Origin: a virus
Lineage: Duplodnaviria; Caudoviricetes
Direction: 5' to 3' (one strand)
Virus record (IMG/VR): IMGVR_UViG_3300044695_004869
Length of the DNA stretch: 64,000 nt
Part shown: piece by piece, positions 24,919 through 56,814 of the stretch
Numbering within the stretch: position 1 is the stretch's first letter
Layout: the number at the start of each line of letters is the position of its first letter
Made by a program: the position numbers and the translations under genes
The notes under the pieces: generated by a model
The model's database searches: none
What the model was told of the DNA's origin: nothing
Seen by the model: the letters and a program-made list of their open reading frames with translations, nothing else

Positions 24919-26013
24919 ATGAAAGTAACTATTAAACATATAAAATGCGATATGTCCAAAGAGGACAAAAAATTGGTGGAGGATTTTTTAAAATATTTAC
25001 AAAAAAAATATCCCGTAAAAAATGATGTTACTGTTTTATTTTTAGGTGAAAAAACAGATGGTATGTCTACGGGGAGTAGAAATGAAAATTCAGAACTTAA
25101 AATTTTAACTAAAGGTAGAATTAATAGAGATGTTTGTAGAACACTGGCTCACGAATGGGTACACGAGTGGCAAAGATCAACCAAAGGTATGGAGAGAGGA
25201 CCTGATATCGGAGGTCCAAATGAAGATGAAGCAAATTCAGAAGCCGGTTCAGTACTAAAAAAGTTTGAACGTGATTTTCCCCAACACGAAAAATTAATGT
25301 ATGAAGGTTTAATTGGTATTGGTAAAAAAATTAATTTAATAACAGAACAACTTGTATTGGCGGAAAAAGAAAACATCCGTGAAGATTTCTTAATGGAAAT
25401 GAAAAAAATTGGTATTGATAAATTACCTTATTCATATTCGGCATTAAATAAGTTTGTGGATCCTGAAACTATGAACACTCACTATAACAAACATTACAAA
25501 GGATATGTTAAAAAATTAAACGATGCTTTATCAAAAAAAGATTATGGTGATGTTGAGTTAGAAGATATTGTTAAATCAATTGGTAAATACAATACAACAA
25601 TAAGAAATAATGCTGGTGGTGCGTTTAATCACGCTTTGTTTTGGAAGATGTTGTCACCAAAAAGACAGAAACCAAGTGGTGAAGTATTTGAAAAAATTAC
25701 CAAACAATATGGGAACATTAAAAAAATGAAGGACGAATTTAACCAATCAGCTAAAGATAGATTTGGTTCAGGATGGGTATGGTTGGTTCTTACTAAAACA
25801 GGAAGATTAAAAGTCATCTCAACACCAAACCAAGACAATCCTATGATGAGTGTCGTTAAAGATGGGGGATATCCATTGTTAGGTCTTGATGTATGGGAAC
25901 ACGCTTACTACTTACGTTATAGAAATAAACGAGACGAATACATTAAAAAGTTTTGGGATTACGTAAATTGGGAATTCGTTAATGAGCTATATCTATTGAG
26001 AACTAAAAAATAA
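24919..26013 (+). CDS. HExxH metallopeptidase-like domain fused to Fe/Mn superoxide dismutase
   Basis: N-terminal RTLAHEWVHEWQ...EDEANSEAG; C-terminal HYNKHYKGY, NNAGGAFNHALFW, FGSGWVWL, NQDNP, LGLDVWEHAYY. Confidence 0.9.
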   Translation: MKVTIKHIKCDMSKEDKKLVEDFLKYLQKKYPVKNDVTVLFLGEKTDGMSTGSRNENSELKILTKGRINRDVCRTLAHEWVHEWQRSTKGMERGPDIGGPNEDEANSEAGSVLKKFERDFPQHEKLMYEGLIGIGKKINLITEQLVLAEKENIREDFLMEMKKIGIDKLPYSYSALNKFVDPETMNTHYNKHYKGYVKKLNDALSKKDYGDVELEDIVKSIGKYNTTIRNNAGGAFNHALFWKMLSPKRQKPSGEVFEKITKQYGNIKKMKDEFNQSAKDRFGSGWVWLVLTKTGRLKVISTPNQDNPMMSVVKDGGYPLLGLDVWEHAYYLRYRNKRDEYIKKFWDYVNWEFVNELYLLRTKK

Positions 26014-37362: not shown

Positions 37363-38991
37363 TTAACAACTTATATTAGGTATTATGGAGAATGAATCAA
37401 ATTGAACTATAACACCATTATTATCGGTTTTAACCATATAAAGATTTTGTAAATTATTACATAAACCCGCTTGGGTTGGATCGTAAATAAACCTCGTATT
37501 TGTTTGGGGTGGATATATACCTGATCCGTTAGGAGTAAAACCATAAATTGTTACACCTAACGCCGGTGGACTATAACATCTTTTGGTCATTCCTTGAACT
37601 TGGGATGTAACGTTACAATTAGTCAAGAAACAAGCGTAAGTGTTAAGTTGACATTTTATTAAACTATCACTTATAGAAGATGGGTTTGTTATAACAACAT
37701 TAGAACCATTACAAACAAGATTATAACCTGTTTGAAATGAGAATGGATTTGGTATAAGATTTCCTCTTGTTGGTGTTGGTGTTGGAGTTTTAGTTGGTGT
37801 TGGAGTTGGTAATGGGTTATTACAATCATATACCTCAAATGAAACAAATGACGTAAATGGACCAACCGCAGCATTAATAGGTGTTCGAGTTGGAGTTTTA
37901 GTTGGTGTTGGTGTTGGAGTTTTAGTTGGGGTTGGAGTTAATCCAAATGTTTTACTTGGTGTTGGTGTTGGTGTTTTGGTTGGTGTTGTTGTTTTAGTTG
38001 GTGTATTTGTAGGAGTTGGAGATAAACCAGGAGTAGGTGTTGGAGTTTTAGTAGGGGTTGGTGTTAATCCTTGTGTTGGGGTTGGAGTTTGTGTTGGTGT
38101 TTGTGTTGGTGTTTTTGTTGGAGTTATAGTATTTGTAGGAGTTATTGTTGGAGTATTTGTTGGAGTTGGTGTTGGAGCAACCGGATCACAAGTACAAACA
38201 CTTTGAAGATATGTGGTACCATTACCTGTAAGTTTAGTAACAGATAATGCACATAATGTTGATGCAAAATCAGTTGAAGCACTGATTGTTGTTGTATTTC
38301 CAGAACAATCTAAATAACTAAATGTTGATCCTGTCACATCTGTACCACCATAATAATACCAAGTATTACAACAAGGTATTGGTGTAGAACTTGGGGTTAA
38401 AGTTGGAGTTGGAGTTGGAGTTGATGTTTGTACAAAAATTTCCATACAAAATTCATCAATAGGTACAGGTTCTGGCGCAAATGGACTCGGAGCAGGAGTT
38501 CTTGTTGGTGTAGGAGTTGGTGTGTCTTGAGGACAACAACATTCGGTTGTTGTCGTTGTTGTTGTTGGACAAACATTATTACAACATGGGAATTCTATTA
38601 GGTAACAATCTTCATATGGTAAATCTTCCGCAATAAAACTTTCTTGCACATTAATAAATAATTGTTCTCTTATTGGTAATATTAAAACACCTTGAGAATT
38701 TCTTAATAAAAATTGAGCCTCATATCTTGCGGTTTTATTTGTATCTTGTGGTTTAAATTGATAATATATATAATATTCAGGTTCAGCGTTTGGATCCATA
38801 AGTTCTTTCTCAACAAATCCAGCAGGGCTTGTTGAGATTTTAGGGATCCCGGTTTCAACATTTGTCATTGAAAAGAAGATTGCGGACTCTTCGATCATAT
38901 CCATGAAAGAATTGTAATCGCTTCTACCGTCTTTTACAACCTGTAATTTTAATATAGGGAGAGTAGCATTCTTTTTAATGAAAAATTCCAT
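37363..38991 (-). CDS. BppU-like N-terminal anchor plus Thr/Pro mucin-like stalks and Cys-rich modules
   Basis: [16 protein letters not shown]...[19 protein letters not shown]; long TPTKTPTPT runs. Confidence 0.55.
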
Positions 38992-39029: not shown

Positions 39030-40703
39030 TTAACATTCTTTTCTTAAAGAACCATCATAATGATCAAATCTATTATGTTCTGTCGGTGTTGATAATAAAA
39101 TACCTGATTTAATATTACCTTTTACCGTTTCTTGATAACAATGACTCATTAATGTTTGTTCATATGGGTTTTGGAATTTTGTTTTTAAATAACAATTATA
39201 ATTTCCTTCCTTAGACATTAATATTGGCCAATTAGATAAATAAATTTCTCCCGAAGCGTAAGGTACATTTCTATAAGATTTTATATGTTTAAATTCTAAA
39301 TTTGGTGAATTTGGGTCTAATCCCTGTTGAGGTAATTTAGGGTTATTTGGCCAATGAGATTCTCTAAATTCTTGAGGTACATTGTACCAAGCCCATTGTT
39401 TGTCGTGGGAACCATAAAACTCACTGAAGTTTAATTTTAAAAAATCAAAATTTTCATTTTTTAGAATGTCTAATGTTATGTCAAATATATTTTTAATATA
39501 TCTATTAAAACCATTTCTACAAGTTAAATCACCACCATTGTAAAAAAACATATCATCTTCAAAAAAATAATAATACCCTAAATCTTTTTGTTCATCAAAA
39601 TGTTCGGCAATAAATTGTCTACCACCAGTTATTCCGATGTTATCCTTTTTTATATGTTCAAACCCATATTCATTACATAATTTAATGTATTCATCTGTAG
39701 TTGTTAAATCGGTAGAATTATTTAAAAGAAATTTTTTAGTTTCATTAATAAATTTAGGGTCGTATTCTAACATTGAATTAATTAGAGTTCTAAATTGATT
39801 TGGAGAATTAAATGTAATAACATATACAGCAATATCACTACCCGTGTTTTTTACTTTAGGTTTTCTATTTTTATTTAAAATAACAACATCATCATTCTTG
39901 ACATCCTCAAAGAATTTATATAATAAACCATTACTTTCTATTTGACAATAATCAATTAATTGTGGGTTTTGATATAATAATATTGTGAATAAACTTTCTT
40001 CCGTACCCATATATCCTTTATTTAAAGTTTCAATAAGTAGGTTATAATATAAGACATTTATTTCGGCTATTGTATGTTTATCACCACCAAAAAAACCTCC
40101 TCTCGCAACAATATTTGGTTCAGAATTAGTTAATCTTTTCATTTCATTATATTCAAAACCATGTACTTCATTTTCCGCATCATATGGAAAACAAACAAAT
40201 AAAAAATTATTTGTTAATATTTTTATTTTATCCATTACTTTATCGTGAGTAAAGTAACCCCAATGAACAGTATTAGTTATTCCCGCATCTATCCAATAAA
40301 GTGAATCGGAATTAAATTTATCTAATATCCTTGCATCATTTAACAAAAACATTTTAGACATAACTAAAGGATTATACATTTCTAATCTTGCCTGTGTGGA
40401 ATCTTTTAACCATCCCGAAAGAGTATACCAACTTTCGTTTAATCTAATTTTTTGTATTTTTTCGTAATATTCATTATTTTTGAACCAATCAACACTTCTA
40501 ACTATAAATTGAGTATTATCTTCATTTCTAAATGTTTTGGCATACTCAATAACTTCTTGGTCACCAAAGATTATTAAATTACCATCATATTGTAAAAGGT
40601 CTTTGAATTTTTCTAAATATGTGTCAAAAGATCTTGACCATCCTTCAGTTAAATTACCTCTTCCGATATTCCATAAACCGGTTACTAATGTTGTGTTTTT
40701 CAT
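39030..40703 (-). CDS. HtrL/YibB-like domain fused to a GT-A (GT2-like) glycosyltransferase domain
   Basis: TLVTGLWNIGRG, YNPLVMSKMFLL, YWIDAG, GGFFGG, GTEESLFT; second domain AVYVITFNSP...YFFEDDMF. Confidence 0.6.
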   Translation of the reverse strand: MKNTTLVTGLWNIGRGNLTEGWSRSFDTYLEKFKDLLQYDGNLIIFGDQEVIEYAKTFRNEDNTQFIVRSVDWFKNNEYYEKIQKIRLNESWYTLSGWLKDSTQARLEMYNPLVMSKMFLLNDARILDKFNSDSLYWIDAGITNTVHWGYFTHDKVMDKIKILTNNFLFVCFPYDAENEVHGFEYNEMKRLTNSEPNIVARGGFFGGDKHTIAEINVLYYNLLIETLNKGYMGTEESLFTILLYQNPQLIDYCQIESNGLLYKFFEDVKNDDVVILNKNRKPKVKNTGSDIAVYVITFNSPNQFRTLINSMLEYDPKFINETKKFLLNNSTDLTTTDEYIKLCNEYGFEHIKKDNIGITGGRQFIAEHFDEQKDLGYYYFFEDDMFFYNGGDLTCRNGFNRYIKNIFDITLDILKNENFDFLKLNFSEFYGSHDKQWAWYNVPQEFRESHWPNNPKLPQQGLDPNSPNLEFKHIKSYRNVPYASGEIYLSNWPILMSKEGNYNCYLKTKFQNPYEQTLMSHCYQETVKGNIKSGILLSTPTEHNRFDHYDGSLRKEC

Positions 40704-40713
40704 ATACTTTTTT

Positions 40714-41589
40714 TTAAAGTGGTGTTATTGGATATTTTGGTATGAATCGTTCTTGATTTGGAATCCCTGTATTGTTAAATGTACAGGTAAAAAATAAAAA
40801 CCCCGAAAACCAATTGGCAATTCTATATATTTGTTTACAAGTTGATAACATATACATATCAAAAATGGTTTCTTTAAGATATTCATATAATATATCGTCT
40901 GTTAAATTCATAGTTCTAATATGTTCAAAGGTCAATGGAAATTTGTAATCATTTAAAATAAAATTTTCATGACTTGAATTTCTTAAATAGTTTTTAACTA
41001 TATCAAATTGAACGGAAACATAAACTTTTTTATTTTTATTTGAAATTAAAAAATCATCAATTTCACTTTTATATGTGTTAAGATCTTCTTCTTGATTTAC
41101 AGGATTGTCAGATGCGAATGGTCTATAGTGAATACCATAAAACTCATCTCCGAATGAATTACGTTTATTAACACAATATTCCATAACCTCATCTGTGAAA
41201 AAATTAATTTTTGGTAAATCGTCACGATAATACCATGAGTGTTTCATATGATGAATATTGTTTAATTCATCTACCTTTTTATCTACATATACAGAATAGA
41301 TGTGTTCGTAGTTATAATAATATTCATTATTATTTTTTACGGAATCAAATAAAGATGTGTCACCATTACTTATGATTGTTAGATTATCTAACATATCTAA
41401 TTTAAAAACTTTGTAAAAAACTGATCTATCGGCTGAATTAACTTTATAAGGGTTTCGTGTAAAATCTATATAAACATAAACAGTATAACCTAAGTTTTTT
41501 AATTGTTGTTGTACATCATATACCCTATATATGTTTGAATACATATCCCCTAACCCACTATTAAGACCTGTTATTATATGTGCATTCAT
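40714..41589 (-). CDS. Putative fucosyltransferase-like GT-B enzyme (NodZ/O-FucT-like)
   Basis: GLNSGLGDMY, YGIHYR, VYVSV, DMYMLSTC...FSGF. Confidence 0.45.
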   Translation of the reverse strand: MNAHIITGLNSGLGDMYSNIYRVYDVQQQLKNLGYTVYVYIDFTRNPYKVNSADRSVFYKVFKLDMLDNLTIISNGDTSLFDSVKNNNEYYYNYEHIYSVYVDKKVDELNNIHHMKHSWYYRDDLPKINFFTDEVMEYCVNKRNSFGDEFYGIHYRPFASDNPVNQEEDLNTYKSEIDDFLISNKNKKVYVSVQFDIVKNYLRNSSHENFILNDYKFPLTFEHIRTMNLTDDILYEYLKETIFDMYMLSTCKQIYRIANWFSGFLFFTCTFNNTGIPNQERFIPKYPITPL

Positions 41590-42509
41590 GAGTTATAATT
41601 TAAGATGTCATGCCATATCATATAGAATGGTTTTTGATTATTTGAATGTTCATTCCACATATTAAAATGAAATTCGTCATGTTCTCCTGATGAAAATGCG
41701 GAAAAATATAAATGAACAATTTCTTCATTGCTCATTCTATCTAATGCGATTTTCATTATCCCCTCTTCGGTACATAAGATACCGTGATTTAACACTGATT
41801 CAGTGAAGTTCCAAAAAAGATTAATATACTTTTTTAATACATTAGTATTACCTCCAATCATTCCACCAACAGGATACGGACTTTGGATTGTGTAATCAAT
41901 CAAACCTAAATTGTAAAAAGGATATGAAATTTGTGGGTTAATGGATGTTATTAAAGCAATTTTGTTTTCACACATTAAATTTAAATTATCAAATATTTTT
42001 GTGTTGAGTAATGATGAAAAATTATGTACATCATAATCTGACCACCAAGGTGCGGATAAATTTACGTGGTCTTCAATTTTATTGTATTTTTTTGAGTATC
42101 TCCACGGGAAAATTCCGGGATGTTGTAAACCAACATCTAACCAATAAACATAATCAAACCCCTCTAATTCTTTTTCAATGACTTCAAATTTACCCCACAT
42201 TATTTCAGGACCTCTACCATCTAAATCTGTGTTGAAGAATTTATCTCTAATTTCACTTATTTGTTTATGGTATTTCATATCAGATAACTCAAGTATTTTA
42301 ATTTCTAAATTACTTAAATTATAATCAGTTTTTATTTTGTTTAATTCTTCTAAATTTTTAGAATGTGTATAACAAACTACAGGTAAATTAATTCCCTGAC
42401 AATGTGAAATTAAAGATCCAATATATCTTGGTTTTCTTACATTTGTGGATCCTTGAAACGGATAACCGTTAACATCCATCCAATAAGCTGTTACAATTTT
42501 TGTCTTCAT
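41586..42509 (-). CDS. Second HtrL/YibB-like protein
   Basis: KIVTAYW, MWGKF, YVYWLDVGL, VGGMIGG, CTEEGIM. Confidence 0.5.
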   Translation of the reverse strand: MKTKIVTAYWMDVNGYPFQGSTNVRKPRYIGSLISHCQGINLPVVCYTHSKNLEELNKIKTDYNLSNLEIKILELSDMKYHKQISEIRDKFFNTDLDGRGPEIMWGKFEVIEKELEGFDYVYWLDVGLQHPGIFPWRYSKKYNKIEDHVNLSAPWWSDYDVHNFSSLLNTKIFDNLNLMCENKIALITSINPQISYPFYNLGLIDYTIQSPYPVGGMIGGNTNVLKKYINLFWNFTESVLNHGILCTEEGIMKIALDRMSNEEIVHLYFSAFSSGEHDEFHFNMWNEHSNNQKPFYMIWHDILNYNS

Positions 42510-42513
42510 ACTT

Positions 42514-43050
42514 TTATTTTTTTATACCCCAAAAGTATAAATCTTGAGGCCAAACACTTCTGGTCTCAAATTCATAACTTGAAAAAATTTCATCTACATT
42601 AATTTTTTCTCTAATATCTTCTTCGGATAAATTTCTATAATAATCTGTTTCCAATTGTGATGTAAATGGACTATTACTTGGGCTTGTTCTTTTTGTTCCG
42701 TGTTCGGGTCTACCAATACCGGCGCAAGTAAATGTGAAAATACCATCGGATTTTAAAAGATCAATCCCATTTTTAATTGTTAATTCCCAAAACTCATCAT
42801 GTTCAAAACATTCTGAAGAAATAACAACATCAAATTGATTTGGATCCTTATATTCGTGACCTCTTGAAACAACGTCAACATTGTTTCCTTCACCAATGTC
42901 AAGTCCAACATATTCGTAATCCTCAAATAAAAAACGATTATTACCGTTAATATCTAAGGATCCAATATCTAAAACCCTACAATTTTTAAATTTTTCCGTA
43001 AATTTAGATCTAACCGATTCTAAAAATATTCTTTGTTCTTCGTGTGCCAT
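42514..43050 (-). CDS. Class I SAM-dependent methyltransferase
   Basis: VLDIGSLDING...YVGLDI...DVV...FDVVISSECFEHD. Confidence 0.85.
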   Translation of the reverse strand: MAHEEQRIFLESVRSKFTEKFKNCRVLDIGSLDINGNNRFLFEDYEYVGLDIGEGNNVDVVSRGHEYKDPNQFDVVISSECFEHDEFWELTIKNGIDLLKSDGIFTFTCAGIGRPEHGTKRTSPSNSPFTSQLETDYYRNLSEEDIREKINVDEIFSSYEFETRSVWPQDLYFWGIKK

Positions 43051-43052
43051 AA

Positions 43053-43814
43053 TTAAAATCTTATATGATAATCCCCTGTTTTAGTGTAGAAAGCAAAACA
43101 AGAAGGTAAAAAGTGATTAAACACTCCATTGTAATTCCATTTCATTCCTGCCTCTAATGCCGATACCCCAATTTCAAAACCATCAGGATAATTTCTAATA
43201 TCGTTATGAATTGAATACCATAAAAACTGTTCCCATCTTTGAGTAAAGAATCTAAATTTGTAATTGTTTTTAAACACTAAACACTGTTCGTTTACAACGT
43301 GAGCATCATCCCATTTATCATATTCCAAAATATCGTAATCATAAATTTTATCCCTATAAAAACTATTTTCAGGATCTCTCCTACCATCACCAATACTTGC
43401 TGGTCTTTCAAAAACAAAGTCCAATTCTTCGTTCTCCATATAGTTTAACATATTTAATATTTTTTCTTCAGAAAAATTTTCGTGCATAATCCAATCTCCA
43501 TCTGTGAATATCACGTAATCAAATTTCTTAAATTCAGGGTTTAATCTTAACATTTCCTTTTCATTATTTAAAACTTGTTTAAGCGATAAACATTTATAAT
43601 TTAAATGGAAACTAAACCCTCCTCTTGAATCGTGTAAACTTTGTAATGATTCTCTATTGATATGAATTCTTTCGCCTAAATCAGGAAAGTCAGGATTATT
43701 TGTTGTAATAAAAAATTCACAATTTTGAGTTTTTTCTCTTAAACTTGTGTATAATTTGGCGGTGAATTCTTCATATGGCTCACCGACAGCCAAAGTTGTA
43801 AAACAGTATTTCAT
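43053..43814 (-). CDS. Putative GT-A glycosyltransferase
   Basis: FTTLAVGEPY, KCLSLK, YVIFTDGD (DxD), VNEQCLVF; inside GT operon. Confidence 0.5.
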   Translation of the reverse strand: MKYCFTTLAVGEPYEEFTAKLYTSLREKTQNCEFFITTNNPDFPDLGERIHINRESLQSLHDSRGGFSFHLNYKCLSLKQVLNNEKEMLRLNPEFKKFDYVIFTDGDWIMHENFSEEKILNMLNYMENEELDFVFERPASIGDGRRDPENSFYRDKIYDYDILEYDKWDDAHVVNEQCLVFKNNYKFRFFTQRWEQFLWYSIHNDIRNYPDGFEIGVSALEAGMKWNYNGVFNHFLPSCFAFYTKTGDYHIRF

Positions 43815-43815
43815 T

Positions 43816-44496
43816 TTATAAATTTATTTCGTTTATATAGTTTAGGCATTGAACTCCACTTGGTTTTGTGGGTTCGTCATTTTCATCCATTTGCATTCCG
43901 ATAAAAAAGTTTTTATCGTCTCTTGGAATATAGTTAGTTCTAATGTCGTATCCGCAATAAAACACCTCATCATTACTAATATTCTCCATGTATATTCTTA
44001 AGATCTCTTGATCGGCACCCCAAACTAATTCATGTGTATTAACAAAATTAATGAAGTGATCCCCAAACTCTTTTATTTTTCTTTTAATCCCATACAATCC
44101 ACTTGGTACTGGTGCGTGCCATGGATGATCTCTAATTATAAAATAATCAAGACCACTATCCATCCATTTATTAATGTACTCAACCTCTCTATCACTAAAT
44201 CGACTATCAAGGTCTCTTGCAATTACAGGAACATCTTCTAAGAATGCTAAAAACCTCCAAAAGAAAGGATAATGGATTGATTCTTTTCCACCCAAATCCA
44301 TTCCATTAACATTAATAAGGGTTCCTCCCAATTCTTTTAATTTATCAACAACACCATCTAAGATCATGTTTTCGTGGTAATAAATCCTAACTTCCCAATC
44401 AGGAAGTAAATTTTTTATTTCTGTTATATTTTTTTCTGCCCCAACATAATATTTTGGTTCAGTTCCGAATAAAGAGAAGGATACTATTGGTTTCAT
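43816..44496 (-). CDS. Putative GT-A glycosyltransferase (RDxDSR family)
   Basis: VSFSLFG...KYYVGAEKN, FWRFLAF, IARDLDSRFSDRE, IRDHPWH, GADQ. Confidence 0.5.
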   Translation of the reverse strand: MKPIVSFSLFGTEPKYYVGAEKNITEIKNLLPDWEVRIYYHENMILDGVVDKLKELGGTLINVNGMDLGGKESIHYPFFWRFLAFLEDVPVIARDLDSRFSDREVEYINKWMDSGLDYFIIRDHPWHAPVPSGLYGIKRKIKEFGDHFINFVNTHELVWGADQEILRIYMENISNDEVFYCGYDIRTNYIPRDDKNFFIGMQMDENDEPTKPSGVQCLNYINEINL

Positions 44497-45347
44497 CTTT
44501 TGTATATGTCTGTTACGTTTATAAATTCATATCTTGGTTCGTCATCAACAACTAAGTTTACATATGTGTTGAAAACTGAGTTATTTGAGTTTTTACCTGA
44601 GTTTGGACCATCATTGGTTATGGGCCAATATATTTTATCGGCATTAGATAAAAAACAAGCCCAAAATGAAAATGTGCCTTGAGCCGCTATAATTTTATTA
44701 AAAGATGTTATTTGTGAAAATACATCTATTATCGTCCCATCAATTATTATTGGGTTATATTTTGTTAATTTTTCTAATAACGAGGTATGTCTATCTAAAT
44801 GATCTAAACTAATGTATAAATTATCAAAACTTTCATTCTCAATAATATTTGTATAATAATCATCAGGTAAAACAAATGACCCATCTATTCTACTATTTCT
44901 TAACATTATTACAATATCGTTATTGTTTCTTTTTGGTAAAACTAAAGAACTATAGTACGACTTAACCATTTCTTTATATGGTTTAATGTAATCATATTTT
45001 GAAAAATAACATTGGTTTAGAAATCCATGATTTGGGTATTCCTCTATTAACCTTTGAATTGAACCGAAATGTACGATGTCGTTATCACTAATAACTTTAA
45101 TAGGTGAGGATACATCTTTTCTACCATCAATGCCCTTAAATGGAAATATTTGATCTTCATATAAACCGGTTAATCTATCTTCTCTCCTAATGAGGGCATC
45201 GTCAGGGGTTATAAAGTTATAATCTAAAAGATCTGCAATAATTCTACATCCCGCATAAATAAAAAGTTTGTTACCAAAGTTTTTTTTGGGAGATGAAAAA
45301 TGTTTACCACCTAAAAATGATTCGTATTCGTCGTACTGTTCAATCAT
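44493..45347 (-). CDS. Alpha-1,2-fucosyltransferase-like (GT11)
   Basis: FGNKLFIYA, IVIMLRNS, LPDDYY, IIAAQGTFSFWACFL, resembling the GT11 GNQMF / HxRRGD / NSTFSWW motifs. Confidence 0.65.
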   Translation of the reverse strand: MIEQYDEYESFLGGKHFSSPKKNFGNKLFIYAGCRIIADLLDYNFITPDDALIRREDRLTGLYEDQIFPFKGIDGRKDVSSPIKVISDNDIVHFGSIQRLIEEYPNHGFLNQCYFSKYDYIKPYKEMVKSYYSSLVLPKRNNNDIVIMLRNSRIDGSFVLPDDYYTNIIENESFDNLYISLDHLDRHTSLLEKLTKYNPIIIDGTIIDVFSQITSFNKIIAAQGTFSFWACFLSNADKIYWPITNDGPNSGKNSNNSVFNTYVNLVVDDEPRYEFINVTDIYKR

Positions 45348-46591
45348 AAGTTACCTGTAATTCTATCACACCACCCTTTTGATGTGCTATATGGCCAAAC
45401 AACCCAATACTTTGGTTTGTGTACCGTTTGGAAATCTCTCCATACTTTACAATATCCGTCAGGATCATTCATCATCATATTAATTTCATTAATATCGGCA
45501 TCTTTTCTAAAGATTGTTTCATCGTTCTCATCATGGAATGCAACAACCCAAAACTCATAATCTTTTTCCGGAACTTGAGTAAATCCAACATCAATACAAT
45601 GTTTGAATATTGATGCATAACTTGCCATCAATTCTTCTTCAGTTTCAAAAATGTAAGGGTTTGGTGGGTAGTTTTTATCTAAGGTATATTGTTGGACAGC
45701 TCTTTTAGAAAATAAAAGACCTGAATAGATTTCATATTCTCTTAATGTTCTTTCGGTTCCAAATCCATATTTACTGAAGTCCATTGTAACTTCTTCACCA
45801 TCCATACCAAATAACTGACGATTCTTTTGGTGTGATAAATTATTTTTATTAACCCAATCTTTATCGTCATCCCATTGTTTGGTTCTACCTTTACGAGTAT
45901 ATTCGTGCCAAATAACAACTTTGTGTGGGTGGAATAAATCATAACCGTGAGTATATGCTCTAACGGCAATTGAAATCTCTTCTCCGTGGAAATAGAACTC
46001 AGGATCATGTTGAACCTCTTCACTAAATTGACCTAAAGTAAATGCGAAGTGTGCGGAATAAAACCTTGCGGTAACAGGTTCTTTCATTTCTTGCCAACCT
46101 GGAATTGTTTCAGGTAAAAAGAACACGGCACCTTCGGGAATAAATCTATCAAACGCCATTCTCCAAGGTTCCTGTACTCTACCCGCAGGATCATTATCAG
46201 GATCAAACGAAGAAACATAACCCGTTAATAGTGGTTTCTCAAAACCTTTTTTCTGAAGTTGTTTAACCATTTTGATTAAAGTATCATCCCAATCCTTTTC
46301 AAATCTCATGTGGGAGTCAATTTGTAATGTATATTCTTCACCTTCGTATAATTGTTGAACTTGGTTTCTTGCCCAACAAACACCTTTTGAATCTGAATAT
46401 AAAACATCCAAGATTCTAAATCTTTTATCTTTACGATATTCTTCTAGTAAATCAAATTGATCATCGGGGTTATATTGTCTACAAATTCCAATTCTTAAAT
46501 TCTTAGGTTTTTTTGCGTTTTCCAACATATTTTTAATTGTTGGTTCCAATTGAGGATCACGATATGCTGCGATTTGAACAAATATTTTCAT
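45344..46591 (-). CDS. GT60 polypeptide/hydroxyproline alpha-GlcNAc transferase-like (Gnt1/Gnt2 family)
   Basis: IFVQIAAYRDPQL, KGVCWAR, YTLQIDSHMRF..DWD, FYSAHFAF, DPEFYFHGEEISIAVRAYTHGYDLFHP...WHEY. Confidence 0.8.
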   Translation of the reverse strand: MKIFVQIAAYRDPQLEPTIKNMLENAKKPKNLRIGICRQYNPDDQFDLLEEYRKDKRFRILDVLYSDSKGVCWARNQVQQLYEGEEYTLQIDSHMRFEKDWDDTLIKMVKQLQKKGFEKPLLTGYVSSFDPDNDPAGRVQEPWRMAFDRFIPEGAVFFLPETIPGWQEMKEPVTARFYSAHFAFTLGQFSEEVQHDPEFYFHGEEISIAVRAYTHGYDLFHPHKVVIWHEYTRKGRTKQWDDDKDWVNKNNLSHQKNRQLFGMDGEEVTMDFSKYGFGTERTLREYEIYSGLLFSKRAVQQYTLDKNYPPNPYIFETEEELMASYASIFKHCIDVGFTQVPEKDYEFWVVAFHDENDETIFRKDADINEINMMMNDPDGYCKVWRDFQTVHKPKYWVVWPYSTSKGWCDRITGNL

Positions 46592-46647
46592 ATGATTTTT
46601 TATTTTAATAATAAAATATCAAATCAAAAAAACAATAGTAAATGATA

Positions 46648-48447
46648 TTATCCTGAACAAGGATTTGATGTAATACAACTACTACAAGTTGCACCTATAG
46701 GCAATAAGGTTCCAACAACTGATGGACTTCCACTTGTCTGAGATACTGTTTGATAACATTGACCACCAATTAAAACTAATCTTGGTCCAAGTCCTGAGGA
46801 TGGTAATATGACATATTTTTGAAGACCCGGTATACAACAAGAAGTTGCTAAATAAATAGTACCCGGTGTCCTTGTTGGTGTTGGAGTTTTAGTTTTAGTT
46901 GGTGTTGGAGTTTTAGTTTTAGTTGGAGTTACGGTCATTGTTGGGGTCATTGTCATAGTTTGTGTTGGTGTTGGTGTTAGACAAGGATTACTTGTGGTAC
47001 AAGCATTACAATCTGAGTAAGTATTAGAATTCCAAAACAATGTTACCGGACCACTCAAAGTTGAACTAAGAAAATAACACCCTCCATTTGTTGCTGTTAT
47101 TACTGTGTTAATACTAAATGAAGATGGTAAACTCATAAATCCATCAAGTGGATATGATCCACTACAACTATCACAAGTTTTAACATAAAAAACCAAGAAC
47201 CCTGTTGTGGGTGTTACGGTTGGTGTCACAGTTGGTGTTGAAGTGTTAGTTGGTGTAATCGTATTAGTTGGAGTAACTGTTGGTGTTAAAGTATTAGTTG
47301 GAGTTATAGTATTTGTTGGTGTTACGGTCGAAGTAATAGTATTTGTTGGGGTATTCGTTGGTGTTGGTGTTTTTGTTGAAGTAATGGTATTAGTTGGGGT
47401 AATGGTATTAGTTGGGGTAATAGTATTAGTTGGAGTAATAGTATTAGTTGGAGTAATAGTATTAGTTGGGGTAATAGTATTTGTTATAGTATTAGTTGGG
47501 GTGTTAGTTGGTGTGTTGGTTGGTGTTATAGTATTAGTTGGGGTGTTAGTTGGGGTCGGAGGTGGATCTGTTGACGTATTAGTGGGGGTTGGTGTATTAG
47601 TTGATGTATTAGTTGGGGTTGGACTATTATTTGGAGTAACTGGAGGTGTTGAAGTCATTGTATTTGTTGGGGTGTTGGTTGGTGTCTCAGTTGGAGTAAT
47701 TGTTGGTGTGTTTGTTATTGTGTTAGTTGGGGTATTTGTTATCGTTGGGGTTGGAGTTAAAGTTTTAGTTGGTGTTTTGGTAATAGTTGGAGTTAATGTT
47801 GATGTAATGGATGGAGTACTAGTAATTGTATTAGTTGGTGTATTAGTAGGTGTTAACGTATTAGTTGGTGTATTAGTAGGTGTTAATGTTGGTGTTGCCG
47901 TATTTGATGGAGTAAAATTAGGTGTTGGGGTATTACTTGGTGTAATTGTTTGAGTTGGTGTTGGTGATGGTATTGGAACACAATCACCATTAACACAAGC
48001 AATCCCAATATAAATAATTAGACCATTTATATTAGTTGGGTTACTCCCACAAAAATATTGGATTAAATTTGGACCTACAGATATATTTGTTTGTAATGTC
48101 CCACTACAATCTACATAATCAAAATAACCGGTAATTGATAATGTTGGGTTAATAACTGACAAACAATTACATGGATTTACCAGTGTTGATGTTGGGGTAA
48201 GAGTAACCGTTGGGGTTGGAGTCGGAGTAACAGGGCACGTGTATAACTCAAATGTCTCACATCCGTCATAGTCAATAAGTTTAATTATAATTGATGTTGA
48301 GGTATCTAATGGTGGTGGTACGGTAAATTGAAAAGGTAATGTTACTCCATTCGCAACCAAATAGCAAAACGTATTTGTTATATCACAAACATAAACATCA
48401 TATGGGGCAACACCTGTTGAGGTAAGTATATCAACTACTTGAGACAT
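46648..48447 (-). CDS. Mucin-like Thr/Pro/Asn-rich protein with Cys-rich terminal modules
   Basis: About 250-aa ([12 protein letters not shown])n stalk; 18-nt tandem repeats near 47390-47480. Confidence 0.7.
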
Positions 48448-49538: not shown

Positions 49539-50477
49539 CTATATAATTTCTAATACCTTATTATATACAATAAGTGGATTTGGGTGACACTCAAATGTTT
49601 CTTTTCTTTCTAAACAATTAACTAAAGATGGTATACCTTGAATTGATTGCCACTCTCTAACACCATATTTCATATCTGACGCACAGTGTAAACCACATCC
49701 CCCTCTTACATAATGATATTTATATTCTTGGGAACCTTTTCTATATGGAGATCTAAACTCAGGGTTAATTGAACTACCAAGTTGTATTATTTCACAATCT
49801 GTTGTTCCTGCTAAATGTAACAACCCTGAATCCATTGTAATAAAACACATAGATTTATTGATGAGATGCCAAGTTTGAGATAGTGGGGTTTGATTCATTA
49901 AATTTAAACCTAAATCAATTGGGAAATTAAATACGGGTTTATCTACATTAGACCCACCAAGTTCTGAAGAATCTTTTCCTACCGATATAACCGCAATTCC
50001 TTTTTGATTTAAAAGTTTAACAAGTAGTTGCCATTTTTTTGCGTCCCACGTTCTTGAATTCCAATTTTGTACGGGGTGAATTAAAACATATTTTTCGGGT
50101 AAACCATCAATTGGTTGATATTGATGAGGTATATATTCCAATTCCATCTCATCTTTGGTTAACATAAAACCAAGATTAATTGCGTGGAATTGTCTAATAT
50201 CCATTGCGTTATGTTTATAACAAACACCATTCGGATGATATCCAACATTAAATGAGTTAAAGATCTCGTATTCTTTTTTCTGTTCTTCAGATATAATATT
50301 TGAAACCTCATCATAAACAACATCAACATATGGGTTGTTTGAAAATAGATATGGGTGATGAGTTATAACTGAAATTTTTTGATTATAACTATTAAAAAGT
50401 TTTCTAAGTGTGGGGGTTACACATAACGTATCACCTAATGCTCTTGCGTTTGAAATATCAACACATACTTTCTTCAT
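49539..50477 (-). CDS. GT9/heptosyltransferase-like GT-B enzyme with C-terminal Cys4 cluster
   Basis: ALGDTLCVTPTLRKL, YVLIHP..NWNSRTW, FITMDSGLLHLAG; CGLHC...C...C. Confidence 0.75.
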   Translation of the reverse strand: MKKVCVDISNARALGDTLCVTPTLRKLFNSYNQKISVITHHPYLFSNNPYVDVVYDEVSNIISEEQKKEYEIFNSFNVGYHPNGVCYKHNAMDIRQFHAINLGFMLTKDEMELEYIPHQYQPIDGLPEKYVLIHPVQNWNSRTWDAKKWQLLVKLLNQKGIAVISVGKDSSELGGSNVDKPVFNFPIDLGLNLMNQTPLSQTWHLINKSMCFITMDSGLLHLAGTTDCEIIQLGSSINPEFRSPYRKGSQEYKYHYVRGGCGLHCASDMKYGVREWQSIQGIPSLVNCLERKETFECHPNPLIVYNKVLEII

Positions 50478-53829: not shown

Positions 53830-53886
53830 TTAATCTTTATTTTATAAATACTTTAACTTTTAAACTTGGTTGTTATTTTTAACGAT

Positions 53887-56814
53887 ATGGAAAAGATTAA
53901 ATTATTATACTTAACACCCCACCTATCAACAGGGGGTATGCCTCAATTCGTCTTAAAAAGAATTCAATCATTACAAGAATATAAAGATCAGATTGAGATA
54001 TTTTTAGTTGAATACTCTCAATTCAGTTCAACATATGTTGTACAAAGAGATCAAATTATAAAATTATTAGGAAATAATCACTTCTTCACGTTAGGCGGAA
54101 CTGATGAGGTTGACAAAAAAAATATGTTGATTGACATCTTAAAAAACAATAAGATTGATATTCTTCATTCAGAAGAAATGATTGATGGATTTGAATCGTT
54201 TAATAAAGTTCCAATTGATCTACTAAACCAAATTTACTCTAACGATAGAACTTGGAGAATTATTGAGACGTGTCATAATATTTGGTTTAACCCACTATCA
54301 GATAAAAAATTACATCCTGACGCTTATTCTCTTGTAACACCATATCATATGGAGGTTTCTTTTAAAGATACCCCCCCAATGAAATTTCTATCAACATATC
54401 CATATGAAAACAAAGTAACACCTATCTTAGCGGAAAATGAAATCTATGGTGATTTCAAACAATTACCTCTTATACATAAAATAAAAGTTAGAGAAGAACT
54501 TGGTTTGGATATGTTTAAAACTCACGTATTAAATGTGGGATTATGGACAAGTGGTAAAAATCAAGGTGAGGGTGTTGAGGTCGCAAGAACTTTGGTTGAA
54601 TCTAATCCTGATATTCAATTCCATTTTATTGGAAATCAAGCACCAAACTTTGAGGACTATTGGGGTCCGATTATGAAGAACTTACCATCAAATGTTAAAG
54701 TATGGGGTGAAAGAAATGATGTTGATAAATTTATGCAAGCCTCCGATGTTTTAATGTTTAATTCAACTTGGGAATGTAATCCTTTGGTTATTAGAGAATC
54801 TATTAACTATGGTATGAAAATATTAACAAGAAATCTACCACAATATATGGGAATGTTTGATAAATACATTAAACCAATTAGTGGTGAGATCGAAGACATT
54901 TCAAAACAATTAGTTAAACTTATTAATAATGAACACACATATGACATACCAAACGATACTGATTTTGGTGATAACCTTTTGTCAATGTATCGTATTGTTC
55001 TAAATGAACAAATAAGACATAACGAACCAATTAAAAATGATTACATTTATACACAACATTATGTGTGTCAACCATTTTTTGAATTTAGAGGTCAAAGTGA
55101 AAATAAGTTTTTAATTAAAATGTTTGATGGTGATGACAATCTTATTTATAGTAATACGTTATCAATTAATAGTTGGATTAAATTAAATAGAGAATATTAT
55201 ACAGATTGGAGAACAGAGGTGTGGGAAAATGATGAATTGATTTATGAAAATAAAATTAACTTAGAAGGAAAAAGAGTTTATATATCGTTCGGATCAAAAT
55301 CATTAGGGGATACAATGGCTTGGATTCCTTATGTTGAGGAATTTAGATTAAAACATAAATGCGAATTAATTGTCTCGACATTTATGAACCAACTATTTGT
55401 TGATCAATATCCAAATATTGAATTTGTTGATCCGGGAAATGTTGTTATGAATATTCATGCCCAATATAGAATAGGGTGGTTCTATAATGAAGATGGTTCC
55501 GTAAATTATAATATGACACCAAATGATTATAAAAAACAACCATTACAAAAAACCGCAACAGATATATTAGGTCTTGAATATAATGAGATAAAACCAAAAC
55601 TTAAATTACCAAATGTTCCAAAAAAGAAAAAAGTCGGTATTGGATTTCACTCAACGGCGCAGTCAAAATATTGGAATAACCCAAATGGATGGCAAGAAGT
55701 TATTGATTATCTTATAAATTTAGGATACGAATGTATGATTTATTCTAAAGAGGGGGATGGGTATATGAATAACCATTACCCAAAAGGAGTAACTATTTTT
55801 GAAGGGGGTGACCTACAAAAAGTAATTAATGATCTTGTTACTTGCGAATTCTTTATTGGTTTGGGATCAGGGTTATCTTGGTTAGCGTGGGCTTGTGAAT
55901 TACCGATAGTTTTAATATCAGGATTTAGTGAGAAATGGGCAGAAACAACTTTAGACACATATAGAGTTATTAATGAAAATGTTTGTCACGGATGTTTTAA
56001 TTCGGAAAAATTAGATGCGGGAGATTGGAATTGGTGTCCATTACATAAAGGTACCAATAGAATGTTTGAATGTACAAAACAAATTACATCTCAAATGGTT
56101 ATTTCTGAAATAAATAAAATTCTTAAAAAAGAAAATCTTCCTGTTTTTGATTGGGGTTGGATGAATACAGATATCATTAATGCCCAATATCATAAAGAAG
56201 TTATGTACAATGAAATTTTTATTGATAAGGTTTATGAAAGATTTTTTGAGGTTGAGGAAGGTGATATTGTATTTGATATTGGATCAAGTGTTGGTCCTTT
56301 TACAAAATCAATTTTACATAAAAAACCAAAGCACGTATTCTGTATTGAACCAAGTACCTCCGAATTTAAAACTTTAGTTAAAAACACCTTAGGTTATCCT
56401 GTAACACAAATAAATAAAGGTATTGGTTTTACAAACGGGATTGTTGAATCTAATGAACTTTTTGGTGGGGAAACACATATGGAATCTATAAATTTTAAAA
56501 AACTATTGGATCTTTATGGAATTGAAAAAATTGATTTCTTAAAAACAGATTGTGAAAGTGGTGAATATGAAATCTTTAGAGATGAAAACGTTGAATTCAT
56601 TAAGAATAATGTTAAAAAGATTTCAGGTGAGTGGCACTTAAGAACGGATGAAAGTAGAGAAAAATTCAGACATTTTAGAGATAATGTATTACCTAACTTT
56701 GATAATTACCAAATATTCTCTGTTGATAATATTGATATCAAATGGGAATTGTGGACCGAAAGATTTCTTGAATGGTATGACGAAATAATTATCTATATTG
56801 ATAATAGAAAATAA
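53887..56814 (+). CDS. Tri-domain enzyme: GT4-like + TibC/Aah-like protein O-glycosyltransferase + FkbM methyltransferase
   Basis: GT4: VLNVGLW...KNQ, FMQASDV..FNSTWECNPLVIRE; TibC-like: SKSLGDTMAW, STAQSKYWNN, FIGLGSGLSWLAW, CHGC/WCP/FECTK; FkbM: VFDIGSSVG, IDFLKTDCESGEY. ATG 53887 preferred. Confidence 0.75.
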   Translation: MEKIKLLYLTPHLSTGGMPQFVLKRIQSLQEYKDQIEIFLVEYSQFSSTYVVQRDQIIKLLGNNHFFTLGGTDEVDKKNMLIDILKNNKIDILHSEEMIDGFESFNKVPIDLLNQIYSNDRTWRIIETCHNIWFNPLSDKKLHPDAYSLVTPYHMEVSFKDTPPMKFLSTYPYENKVTPILAENEIYGDFKQLPLIHKIKVREELGLDMFKTHVLNVGLWTSGKNQGEGVEVARTLVESNPDIQFHFIGNQAPNFEDYWGPIMKNLPSNVKVWGERNDVDKFMQASDVLMFNSTWECNPLVIRESINYGMKILTRNLPQYMGMFDKYIKPISGEIEDISKQLVKLINNEHTYDIPNDTDFGDNLLSMYRIVLNEQIRHNEPIKNDYIYTQHYVCQPFFEFRGQSENKFLIKMFDGDDNLIYSNTLSINSWIKLNREYYTDWRTEVWENDELIYENKINLEGKRVYISFGSKSLGDTMAWIPYVEEFRLKHKCELIVSTFMNQLFVDQYPNIEFVDPGNVVMNIHAQYRIGWFYNEDGSVNYNMTPNDYKKQPLQKTATDILGLEYNEIKPKLKLPNVPKKKKVGIGFHSTAQSKYWNNPNGWQEVIDYLINLGYECMIYSKEGDGYMNNHYPKGVTIFEGGDLQKVINDLVTCEFFIGLGSGLSWLAWACELPIVLISGFSEKWAETTLDTYRVINENVCHGCFNSEKLDAGDWNWCPLHKGTNRMFECTKQITSQMVISEINKILKKENLPVFDWGWMNTDIINAQYHKEVMYNEIFIDKVYERFFEVEEGDIVFDIGSSVGPFTKSILHKKPKHVFCIEPSTSEFKTLVKNTLGYPVTQINKGIGFTNGIVESNELFGGETHMESINFKKLLDLYGIEKIDFLKTDCESGEYEIFRDENVEFIKNNVKKISGEWHLRTDESREKFRHFRDNVLPNFDNYQIFSVDNIDIKWELWTERFLEWYDEIIIYIDNRK

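Follow-up and report, generated by a model that had tools for sequence, protein, structure and literature searches.

A GT60-family glycosyltransferase gene beside a Thr/Pro-rich protein gene in an uncultured jumbo phage, and its bacterial relatives

To our knowledge, the initiation of mucin-type O-glycosylation by GT60 or GT27 enzymes is regarded as a eukaryotic trait, and phage virion glycosylation has so far been documented mainly in mycobacteriophages. Here, we analyze a 64,000-nucleotide stretch of DNA (henceforth termed the window; IMG/VR record IMGVR_UViG_3300044695_004869) from an uncultured jumbo myophage, in which a gene for a 415-residue GT60-family glycosyltransferase (P0001) follows a gene for a 599-residue Thr/Pro-rich, mucin-like protein (P0002). 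The enzyme is a genuine GT60/PF11397 member, and its catalytic domain resembles those of polypeptide transferases. The clade of phage and prokaryote GT60 enzymes in which it falls, large and uncharacterized, is marked by a C-terminal domain of its own and by a conserved partner with two domains, an HtrL-type glycosyltransferase. We consider it somewhat probable that the enzyme initiates O-glycans in the cytoplasm on Thr residues of the phage's own Thr/Pro stalk proteins. If this is true, an abundant lake jumbo phage lineage would coat its Thr/Pro stalks with self-made glycans whose composition would vary between near-identical phages, with a bearing on host recognition, protease and grazer resistance, and particle stickiness.

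The phage enzyme and its characterized relatives

The reading frame of the GT60 gene is open and yields a product of 415 amino acids (Table 1). A sequence-only reading of the window had placed this product in GT60, and a hidden Markov model search confirmed the assignment: it matches PF11397 ("Glycosyltransferase (GlcNAc)"), the Pfam family behind CAZy GT60, with an E-value of 4e-73 and 247 bits at a cut-off of 21, and it matches phrog_24687 end to end (574 bits). The Pfam profile search returned neither PF00535 nor a ricin-lectin match, and a sequence search of the PDB found no relative, just chance-level matches to T7 RNA polymerase (E about 0.05). In an alignment of 40 full-length homologs at 37-50% identity, D92 and H94 of the DxH motif, the distal His H229, F201, E204, E205, and R211 are invariant, and G203 is nearly so.

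An AlphaFold2 model of the protein has a mean predicted local distance difference test (pLDDT) score of 95.6 and a predicted template modeling (pTM) score of 0.90. When this model was compared with reviewed UniProt models using Foldseek, the best match was Dictyostelium Gnt1 (Q8T1C6; E 1.3e-25, 26% identity, query residues 2-312), and the other 29 listed Swiss-Prot matches are all polypeptide GalNAc-transferases (ppGalNAc-Ts) or GalNAc-T-like proteins. In the PDB, mucin-type ppGalNAc-Ts occupy ranks 1-8, and the wall-teichoic-acid enzyme TarS first appears at rank 9. A Foldseek-independent VIA scan of 48,161 chains gave GalNAc-T1 (Z 21.4) and Toxoplasma GalNAc-T3 (TgGalNAc-T3, Z 19.9), with the generic GT-A enzymes K4CP (Z 17.0) and SpsA (Z 16.8) next. 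The best structural match is thus not a lipid- or lipopolysaccharide (LPS)-directed GT2 enzyme; two aligners give mucin-type ppGalNAc-Ts as the closest solved structures.

Comparison with characterized enzymes places these matches in context. Gnt1 of Dictyostelium and Toxoplasma, which transfers α-GlcNAc to a hydroxyproline of Skp1, is of the same Pfam family and likewise a soluble, cytoplasmic enzyme with a DxH motif that uses no lipid carrier. The phage enzyme differs from it in lacking PF11397 profile positions ~44-95 and in carrying an extra C-terminal domain of ~100 residues, which begins where the Gnt1 match ends (residue 312). This domain has a predicted β-β-β-α-β-β-β order and is found in most bacterial and phage relatives and in a Micromonas protein. 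An atlas feature search with residues 312-415 gave no usable match, and whole-model searches barely probe that part. The Golgi mucin initiators TcOGNT of Trypanosoma cruzi and Gnt2 of Dictyostelium, both GT60, belong to the secretory pathway and are membrane proteins of type II, whereas the phage enzyme has no membrane anchor. Their acceptors are Thr residues in Thr/Pro-rich mucin repeats (PMC3769586), the closest chemical analog of the TPTNTI stalks described below. Animal and Toxoplasma ppGalNAc-Ts (GT27) have in common with the phage enzyme the GT-A core, the DxH motif, the distal His, and an additional C-terminal domain, but sequence identity is only 11-16% and the ~100-residue phage domain is not a ricin B lectin.

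The first Rossmann strand lies right at the start of the phage protein, which contains no hydrophobic segment. Hydrophobic or transmembrane-like segments are absent from the products of all operon genes, with one borderline stretch window-wide, in a 1672-residue protein. On these grounds, the glycosylation chemistry would be cytoplasmic and independent of a lipid carrier, in agreement with the earlier proposal of an enzyme working in the bacterial cytoplasm. A lipid-linked (undecaprenyl phosphate) pathway was rejected, as the operon encodes no membrane proteins. By family precedent only (PMC6939170, PMC3769586), the donor sugar and its anomeric linkage would be those of an α-linked N-acetylhexosamine such as GlcNAc.

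Thr/Pro-rich neighbors and a conserved HtrL-type partner

Thr makes up 29.5% and Pro 14.5% of the 599-residue protein, in which the exact unit TPTNTI occurs 12 times; over residues 154-430, the Thr content is 43%. Its 22 Cys residues lie in small modules joined by (TPTNTI)n-type stalks, and no signal peptide is present. In an otherwise identical phage contig (L002:13-1728), the protein has 571 residues, and the sole differences are in-frame indels of stalk repeats, 20 and 8 residues long, due either to repeat-number variation or to assembly collapse. The sequence-only reading had described the GT60 gene as lying directly downstream of this gene and as heading an operon of overlapping glycosyltransferase genes, and both descriptions hold: the two genes share a strand and are separated by 56 nucleotides in which no terminator-like hairpin was found on the minus strand, and seven more same-strand genes follow the GT60 gene, tightly packed with junctions of 4-nucleotide overlaps or 1-10-nucleotide gaps.

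This neighborhood recurs in related phages, here the best 80 of at least 566 related IMG/VR stretches (70-88% identity, contigs up to 322 kb). Enough upstream sequence is available for 70 of these loci, and in 43 of them a same-strand Thr/Pro-rich open reading frame (ORF) ends no more than 400 nucleotides upstream of the GT60 gene. The products of these ORFs have about 190 to 1650 residues and are often mutually unalignable. An HtrL partner lies downstream of the GT60 gene in 76 of the 80 loci, and in 67 the HtrL gene is followed by a second Thr/Pro-bearing gene, a homolog of the window's 542-residue protein, whose Thr/Pro stretches span residues 138-181 and 257-384. Similar Thr/Pro stalks occur in the 1672-residue window protein, a further candidate acceptor.

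The HtrL-type partner in the window, a 557-residue protein, carries the HtrL_YibB domain at residues 3-252. In its model (pLDDT 90.9), a disordered linker connects two GT-A domains, the second of which has an invariant E-D-D, and its PDB matches are bifunctional two-domain transferases: LH3, the chondroitin polymerase K4CP, mimivirus R699, and LARGE1. Pairing of GT60 with an HtrL-type protein of ~560 residues was found in 35 of 81 bacterial or cultured-phage loci, including that of phage XacN1, and is backed by independent gene calls in Saprospiraceae and Gemmatimonadaceae. The two genes usually abut in bacteria, are separated by six genes in this phage, and have between zero and six differing genes between them in related phages. 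Since the GT60 and HtrL genes are kept while the intervening genes differ, we regard the module as one of conserved ends and a variable middle. In the window, the middle encodes a weakly GT11-like protein (284 residues), a 226-residue protein, a weakly GT-A/GtrB-like protein (253 residues), an S-adenosylmethionine-dependent methyltransferase (178 residues), and proteins of 307 and 291 residues; Pfam searches at E up to 1 gave nothing further for the 226-, 307-, 291-, and 542-residue proteins. In XacN1 (L005:10409-15946), a carbamoyltransferase gene comes after the GT60-like ORF334, then two small ORFs, and then ORF330, the HtrL-type homolog (42% identity); a GT9 gene lies close by. XacN1 is a tractable system for studying the module.

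A two-domain partner has a parallel in the Skp1 pathway, in which the di-glycosyltransferase PgtA (GT74+GT2) acts after Gnt1 (PMC6939170). The resemblance is one of layout only; homology between HtrL and GT74 is an idea, and a literature search found no paper linking HtrL_YibB to GT74. The phage system also differs from the Skp1 pathway in that it has no Skp1-like acceptor and, judging from related complete genomes, no prolyl hydroxylase, and hydroxyproline is therefore an unlikely acceptor. Specifically, 2-oxoglutarate (2OG) oxygenases of PF13640 or PF03171 are absent from five related phage genomes (93-100% complete, one PF11397 gene each), and no prolyl hydroxylase turned up in scans of the window. 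We consequently rejected hydroxyproline in favor of Thr.

Thr/Pro-rich neighbors are also enriched in bacteria. The bacterial loci were scanned as crude stop-to-stop ORFs, a procedure that also yields spurious frames in high-GC genomes. The density of Thr/Pro/Ser-rich segments is 0.98 per 10 kb up to 2 kb from the module and 0.24 per 10 kb in the outer flanks (28 versus 11 segments), an enrichment of about fourfold, with a binomial p-value of 2e-5 raw and about 0.02 after crude collapse to lineages. Eleven of the neighboring Thr/Pro-rich ORFs carry twin-arginine-type leaders (for example, RRRLLQ, RRKLLQALG, and RRQFVKY) followed by almost pure Thr/Pro repeats. Small proteins composed of such a leader and a Thr/Pro part, with repeats of 100-250 residues, are encoded in Myxococcota, Vicinamibacterales, Halieaceae, Ectothiorhodospiraceae, Acidimicrobiaceae, and Alphaproteobacteria. 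Such proteins resemble exported mucins of a class not yet described, and we infer that a twin-arginine-type leader would suit cytoplasmic glycosylation followed by export. If the proposed action on Thr/Pro stalks holds, the occurrence of such leaders on pure Thr/Pro repeats, seen beside this enzyme pair in ten or more lineages, would offer a directly testable route to bacterial cytoplasmic mucin-type glycosylation. As a separate observation, the Halieaceae ORFs terminate in a hydrophobic anchor and a basic tail.

In two families, called genes confirm the neighbors. The Saprospiraceae/Lewinellaceae neighbor combines an RR leader and Ser/Thr/Pro repeats with a type IX secretion system (T9SS) sorting domain (Por_Secre_tail), and a TatA gene is nearby. 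In Gemmatimonadaceae, the gene directly upstream of the GT60-like gene encodes a PqqD domain, a hydrophobic segment, and a Thr/Pro tail; the gene order at L088:4290-10984 is NTP_transf_5 (726 residues), a 312-residue ORF, the PqqD-domain/Thr/Pro-tail protein, GT60-like, and HtrL-type. A marine low-GC contig has a protein with Cys modules and Thr/Pro linkers, similar to the 599-residue phage protein, upstream of its GT60-like gene. Aside from these arrangements, the PqqD and nucleotidyltransferase genes of Gemmatimonadaceae recall peptide-maturation clusters similar to those for ribosomally synthesized and post-translationally modified peptides.

Candidate acceptors and competing explanations

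In the mechanism that we propose, a soluble, metal-dependent GT-A enzyme of GT60/PF11397 would act in the cytoplasm of the infected cell, taking the sugar of a UDP-sugar donor and attaching it to Thr hydroxyls of the Thr/Pro stalks of the phage's own late proteins, thereby starting O-linked glycans. The 599-residue protein encoded upstream would be the first candidate acceptor, with the 542-residue and 1672-residue proteins as further candidates. The two-domain HtrL-type transferase might then add the next sugars, and the phage-specific extra transferases and the methyltransferase could complete the glycan. We infer acceptor, donor sugar, linkage, and order of steps alike, the acceptor on the basis of synteny and co-occurrence with Thr/Pro-rich ORFs. 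A predicted complex of the enzyme with residues 318-357 of the 599-residue protein, a TPTNTI peptide, had a score of 0.00 and a peptide pLDDT of 26, which is neither support nor evidence against.

Phage precedent exists for the general scheme: as summarized in PMC12619734, mycobacteriophage-encoded transferases decorate the phages' own structural proteins in the host cytoplasm, a role proposed here as well. According to the same summary, of Freeman et al. 2023, the mycobacteriophage virion glycans sit at the C-termini of capsid and tail-tube subunits, whereas the candidate acceptors in the present phage are long mucin-like Thr/Pro stalks.

Several observations weigh against Thr/Pro stalks as acceptors. 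Fold similarity fixes neither acceptor nor donor, and synteny among related phages is shared ancestry rather than independent evidence. Thr/Pro linkers are common in this phage, with five window ORFs containing them, including a sheath-like protein. In XacN1, no Thr/Pro-rich gene adjoins the GT60 gene; several kilobases separate it from the nearest Thr/Pro linkers, which belong to a 3314-residue baseplate-adjacent protein. More than half of the bacterial loci have no Thr/Pro-rich neighbor in the crude ORF scan. Finally, the GT60-like gene of Tunturiibacter lichenicola (Acidobacteriaceae, L080:971-7960) has no HtrL partner and lies divergently beside genes for GT9, a PfkB+cytidylyltransferase (HldE-like) protein, an epimerase, and DUF4254; this heptose-type context suggests a different acceptor in that subclade and would fit a glycan. 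A further context is seen in Sphingobacterium zeae (L052:1924-7636), in which the GT60-like gene is preceded by a C39-peptidase ABC exporter gene with two unannotated ORFs and followed by a gene for a 2Fe-2S ferredoxin, in what could be a glycosylated secreted-peptide locus. From these two contexts, it follows that the family may serve several kinds of acceptor. The earlier proposal of a mucin O-glycosylation initiator acting on phage proteins is retained in part: a link to Thr/Pro-rich proteins is backed by synteny in the 80 related phages and by independent co-occurrence in bacteria of many phyla, the acceptor is a candidate, and the Acidobacteriaceae subclade lies beside heptose/GT9 genes instead.

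Glycosylation of a protein, but chiefly of another class of phage protein, is a rather unlikely alternative. The main acceptor would then be a giant Gly-Thr-X collagen-like fiber, a LamG/fibrinogen-domain protein, or a capsid or tail protein, and Thr/Pro adjacency would reflect shared late expression only. The window does contain many such candidate acceptors, together with protein-type transferases that include GT9/TibC-like genes at 49539-50477 and within 53866-56814, and the detached position of the XacN1 gene fits as well. However, the conserved bacterial neighbors are almost pure Thr/Pro repeats with no collagen-like or LamG parts, and the characterized GT60 and GT27 enzymes use Thr/Pro-rich or Pro-derived sites (PMC3769586, PMC6939170).

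Also unlikely is an acceptor that is a sugar or lipid-linked, such that a host polysaccharide, LPS core, or capsule is built or remodeled during infection and protein remains unmodified. The Acidobacteriaceae genes for GT9, HldE-like, and epimerase functions argue for such a role, as do the presence of HtrL genes in lipooligosaccharide outer-core loci of Acinetobacter (PMC4172580) and, from one source, the Joint Genome Institute's name for near-identical proteins, "glycosyltransferase involved in cell wall biosynthesis"; polysaccharide-acting GT-A enzymes rank next after the ppGalNAc-Ts in the VIA scan. The ppGalNAc-Ts nevertheless come first, so the closest structures are polypeptide transferases, and the Thr/Pro-rich neighbors are enriched in bacteria. 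Moreover, the search of the window for a membrane protein, a flippase, a polymerase, or a priming transferase found none, and the GT60 gene sits amid late structural and fiber genes of a lytic-type jumbo myophage. Glycosylation of modified bases in the phage DNA for anti-restriction hypermodification, a frequent task of phage glycosyltransferases (10.1101/2023.12.21.572611; discussion in PMC12619734), is very improbable, given that the searches run revealed no relation to known DNA glycosyltransferase folds, no base-hydroxymethylation genes were seen in the window, and the bacterial homologs occupy chromosomal loci with secreted proteins.

Distribution, origin, and further features of the window

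An exhaustive HMMER scan returned at least 4697 family clusters at 50% identity, 985 of them with E below 1e-30, and some members are giant proteins with two to four tandem domain copies. Five giant proteins of 1600-2460 residues (P0123, P0125, P0126, P0131, and P0136) were matched in four stretches each, which suggests tandem PF11397 domains. Relatives are encoded by at least 559 bacterial species genomes. The best of these, from Saprospiraceae, has 71% identity, and one Saprospiraceae homolog lies on a truly bacterial contig beside genes for carbamoyl-phosphate synthase, NAD kinase, Omp85, and UvrB. GenBank phages that encode relatives number only four, all of them jumbo phages infecting Xanthomonas and Stenotrophomonas (45-49% identity), whereas the at least 566 related stretches confirmed in IMG/VR comprise hundreds of contigs. 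In BFVD, the fold is present in uncultured Caudovirales, Megaviridae, and Pandoravirus under the automatic name "Glycosyltransferase, GlcNAc". A literature search found, within the library covered, no paper on GT60 enzymes of phages or bacteria.

In a quick maximum-likelihood tree, midpoint-rooted for drawing only and built from sequences other than those of protists, the lake-phage enzymes group with Bacteroidota, with Saprospiraceae/Lewinellaceae sequences nested among them, and the XacN1 enzyme groups with Burkholderiales (Shimodaira-Hasegawa-like approximate likelihood-ratio test, 100). The phage copies thus cluster by the phylum of the known or likely host, and the lake-phage lineage and Bacteroidota appear to share the GT60 and HtrL gene pair. 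No obvious Shine-Dalgarno sequence precedes the GT60 start codon (46592-46620), where the leader is A/T-rich instead; together with the tree position, this fits a Bacteroidota (Saprospiraceae-like) host. A purely protist-derived gene was rejected on the basis of the same tree, with its non-protist sampling. The label "protist-style" given in the sequence-only reading is misleading, given the bacterial nearest relatives and a family with thousands of members in prokaryotes and phages.

More tentatively, the findings may point to a widespread, undescribed prokaryotic module for mucin-type O-glycosylation, in which a Thr/Pro-repeat protein is combined with a GT60-like initiator that bears a C-terminal domain of its own and with an HtrL-type di-glycosyltransferase of two domains. 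We regard as possible, though doubtful, that bacteria would use it for cytoplasmic glycosylation followed by folded export via a twin-arginine leader, that the protist Gnt1-PgtA pathway would have in it a prokaryotic counterpart and perhaps even its source, and that the lake jumbo phages would have acquired it from their Bacteroidota hosts, with later diversification of the middle genes for a variable fiber sugar coat. Should the proposed O-glycosylation of Thr/Pro stalks hold, the enzymes of the protist Skp1 pathway would also gain a candidate origin among prokaryotes.

Table 1. Coordinates of the features discussed (positions refer to the window unless a locus is given)
Feature	Position	Strand
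GT60-family (PF11397) glycosyltransferase, 415 residues, soluble; residues 1-~312 GT-A catalytic, ~313-415 extra β-rich C-terminal domain	45344..46591	-
DxH motif codons (D92-S93-H94), metal/nucleotide-sugar motif at β-strand end	46310..46318	-
C-terminal domain, ~100 residues (~313-415)	45347..45655	-
Spacer between Thr/Pro-rich gene and GT60 gene, 56 nucleotides, AT-rich	46592..46647	-
Thr/Pro-rich mucin-like protein, 599 residues, candidate acceptor	46648..48447	-
Variable tailoring cassette, 6 genes	40714..45347	-
Two-domain glycosyltransferase, 557 residues; HtrL_YibB domain N-terminal, GT-A domain C-terminal	39030..40703	-
Protein with two Thr/Pro stretches, 542 residues, second candidate acceptor	37363..38991	-
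Small bacterial twin-arginine-leader Thr/Pro ORFs by the GT60-like/HtrL pair	L034:147-1061, L036:488-1012, L053:2748-3473, L055:2792-3454, L045:7479-8240, L058:7491-8126, L062:7283-7873 (-), L056:4424-5998	

The window DNA is AT-rich (~30% GC). It was detected in lake-water metagenomes, in 24 or more runs, each with a coded study of its own, and no RNA run was among those listed. GenBank phages gave no megablast match to the locus. The 415-residue protein recurs on contigs of up to 234 kb. Protein annotation of the window revealed a tail sheath, a T4-type baseplate protein, and a gp19-like tube protein, and the window also encodes a family B DNA polymerase and giant fiber-like ORFs. Apart from these genes, positions 24919-26013 on the plus strand encode an Fe/Mn superoxide dismutase, with both Pfam domains at residues 166-356, fused to an unannotated N-terminal extension of ~165 residues.

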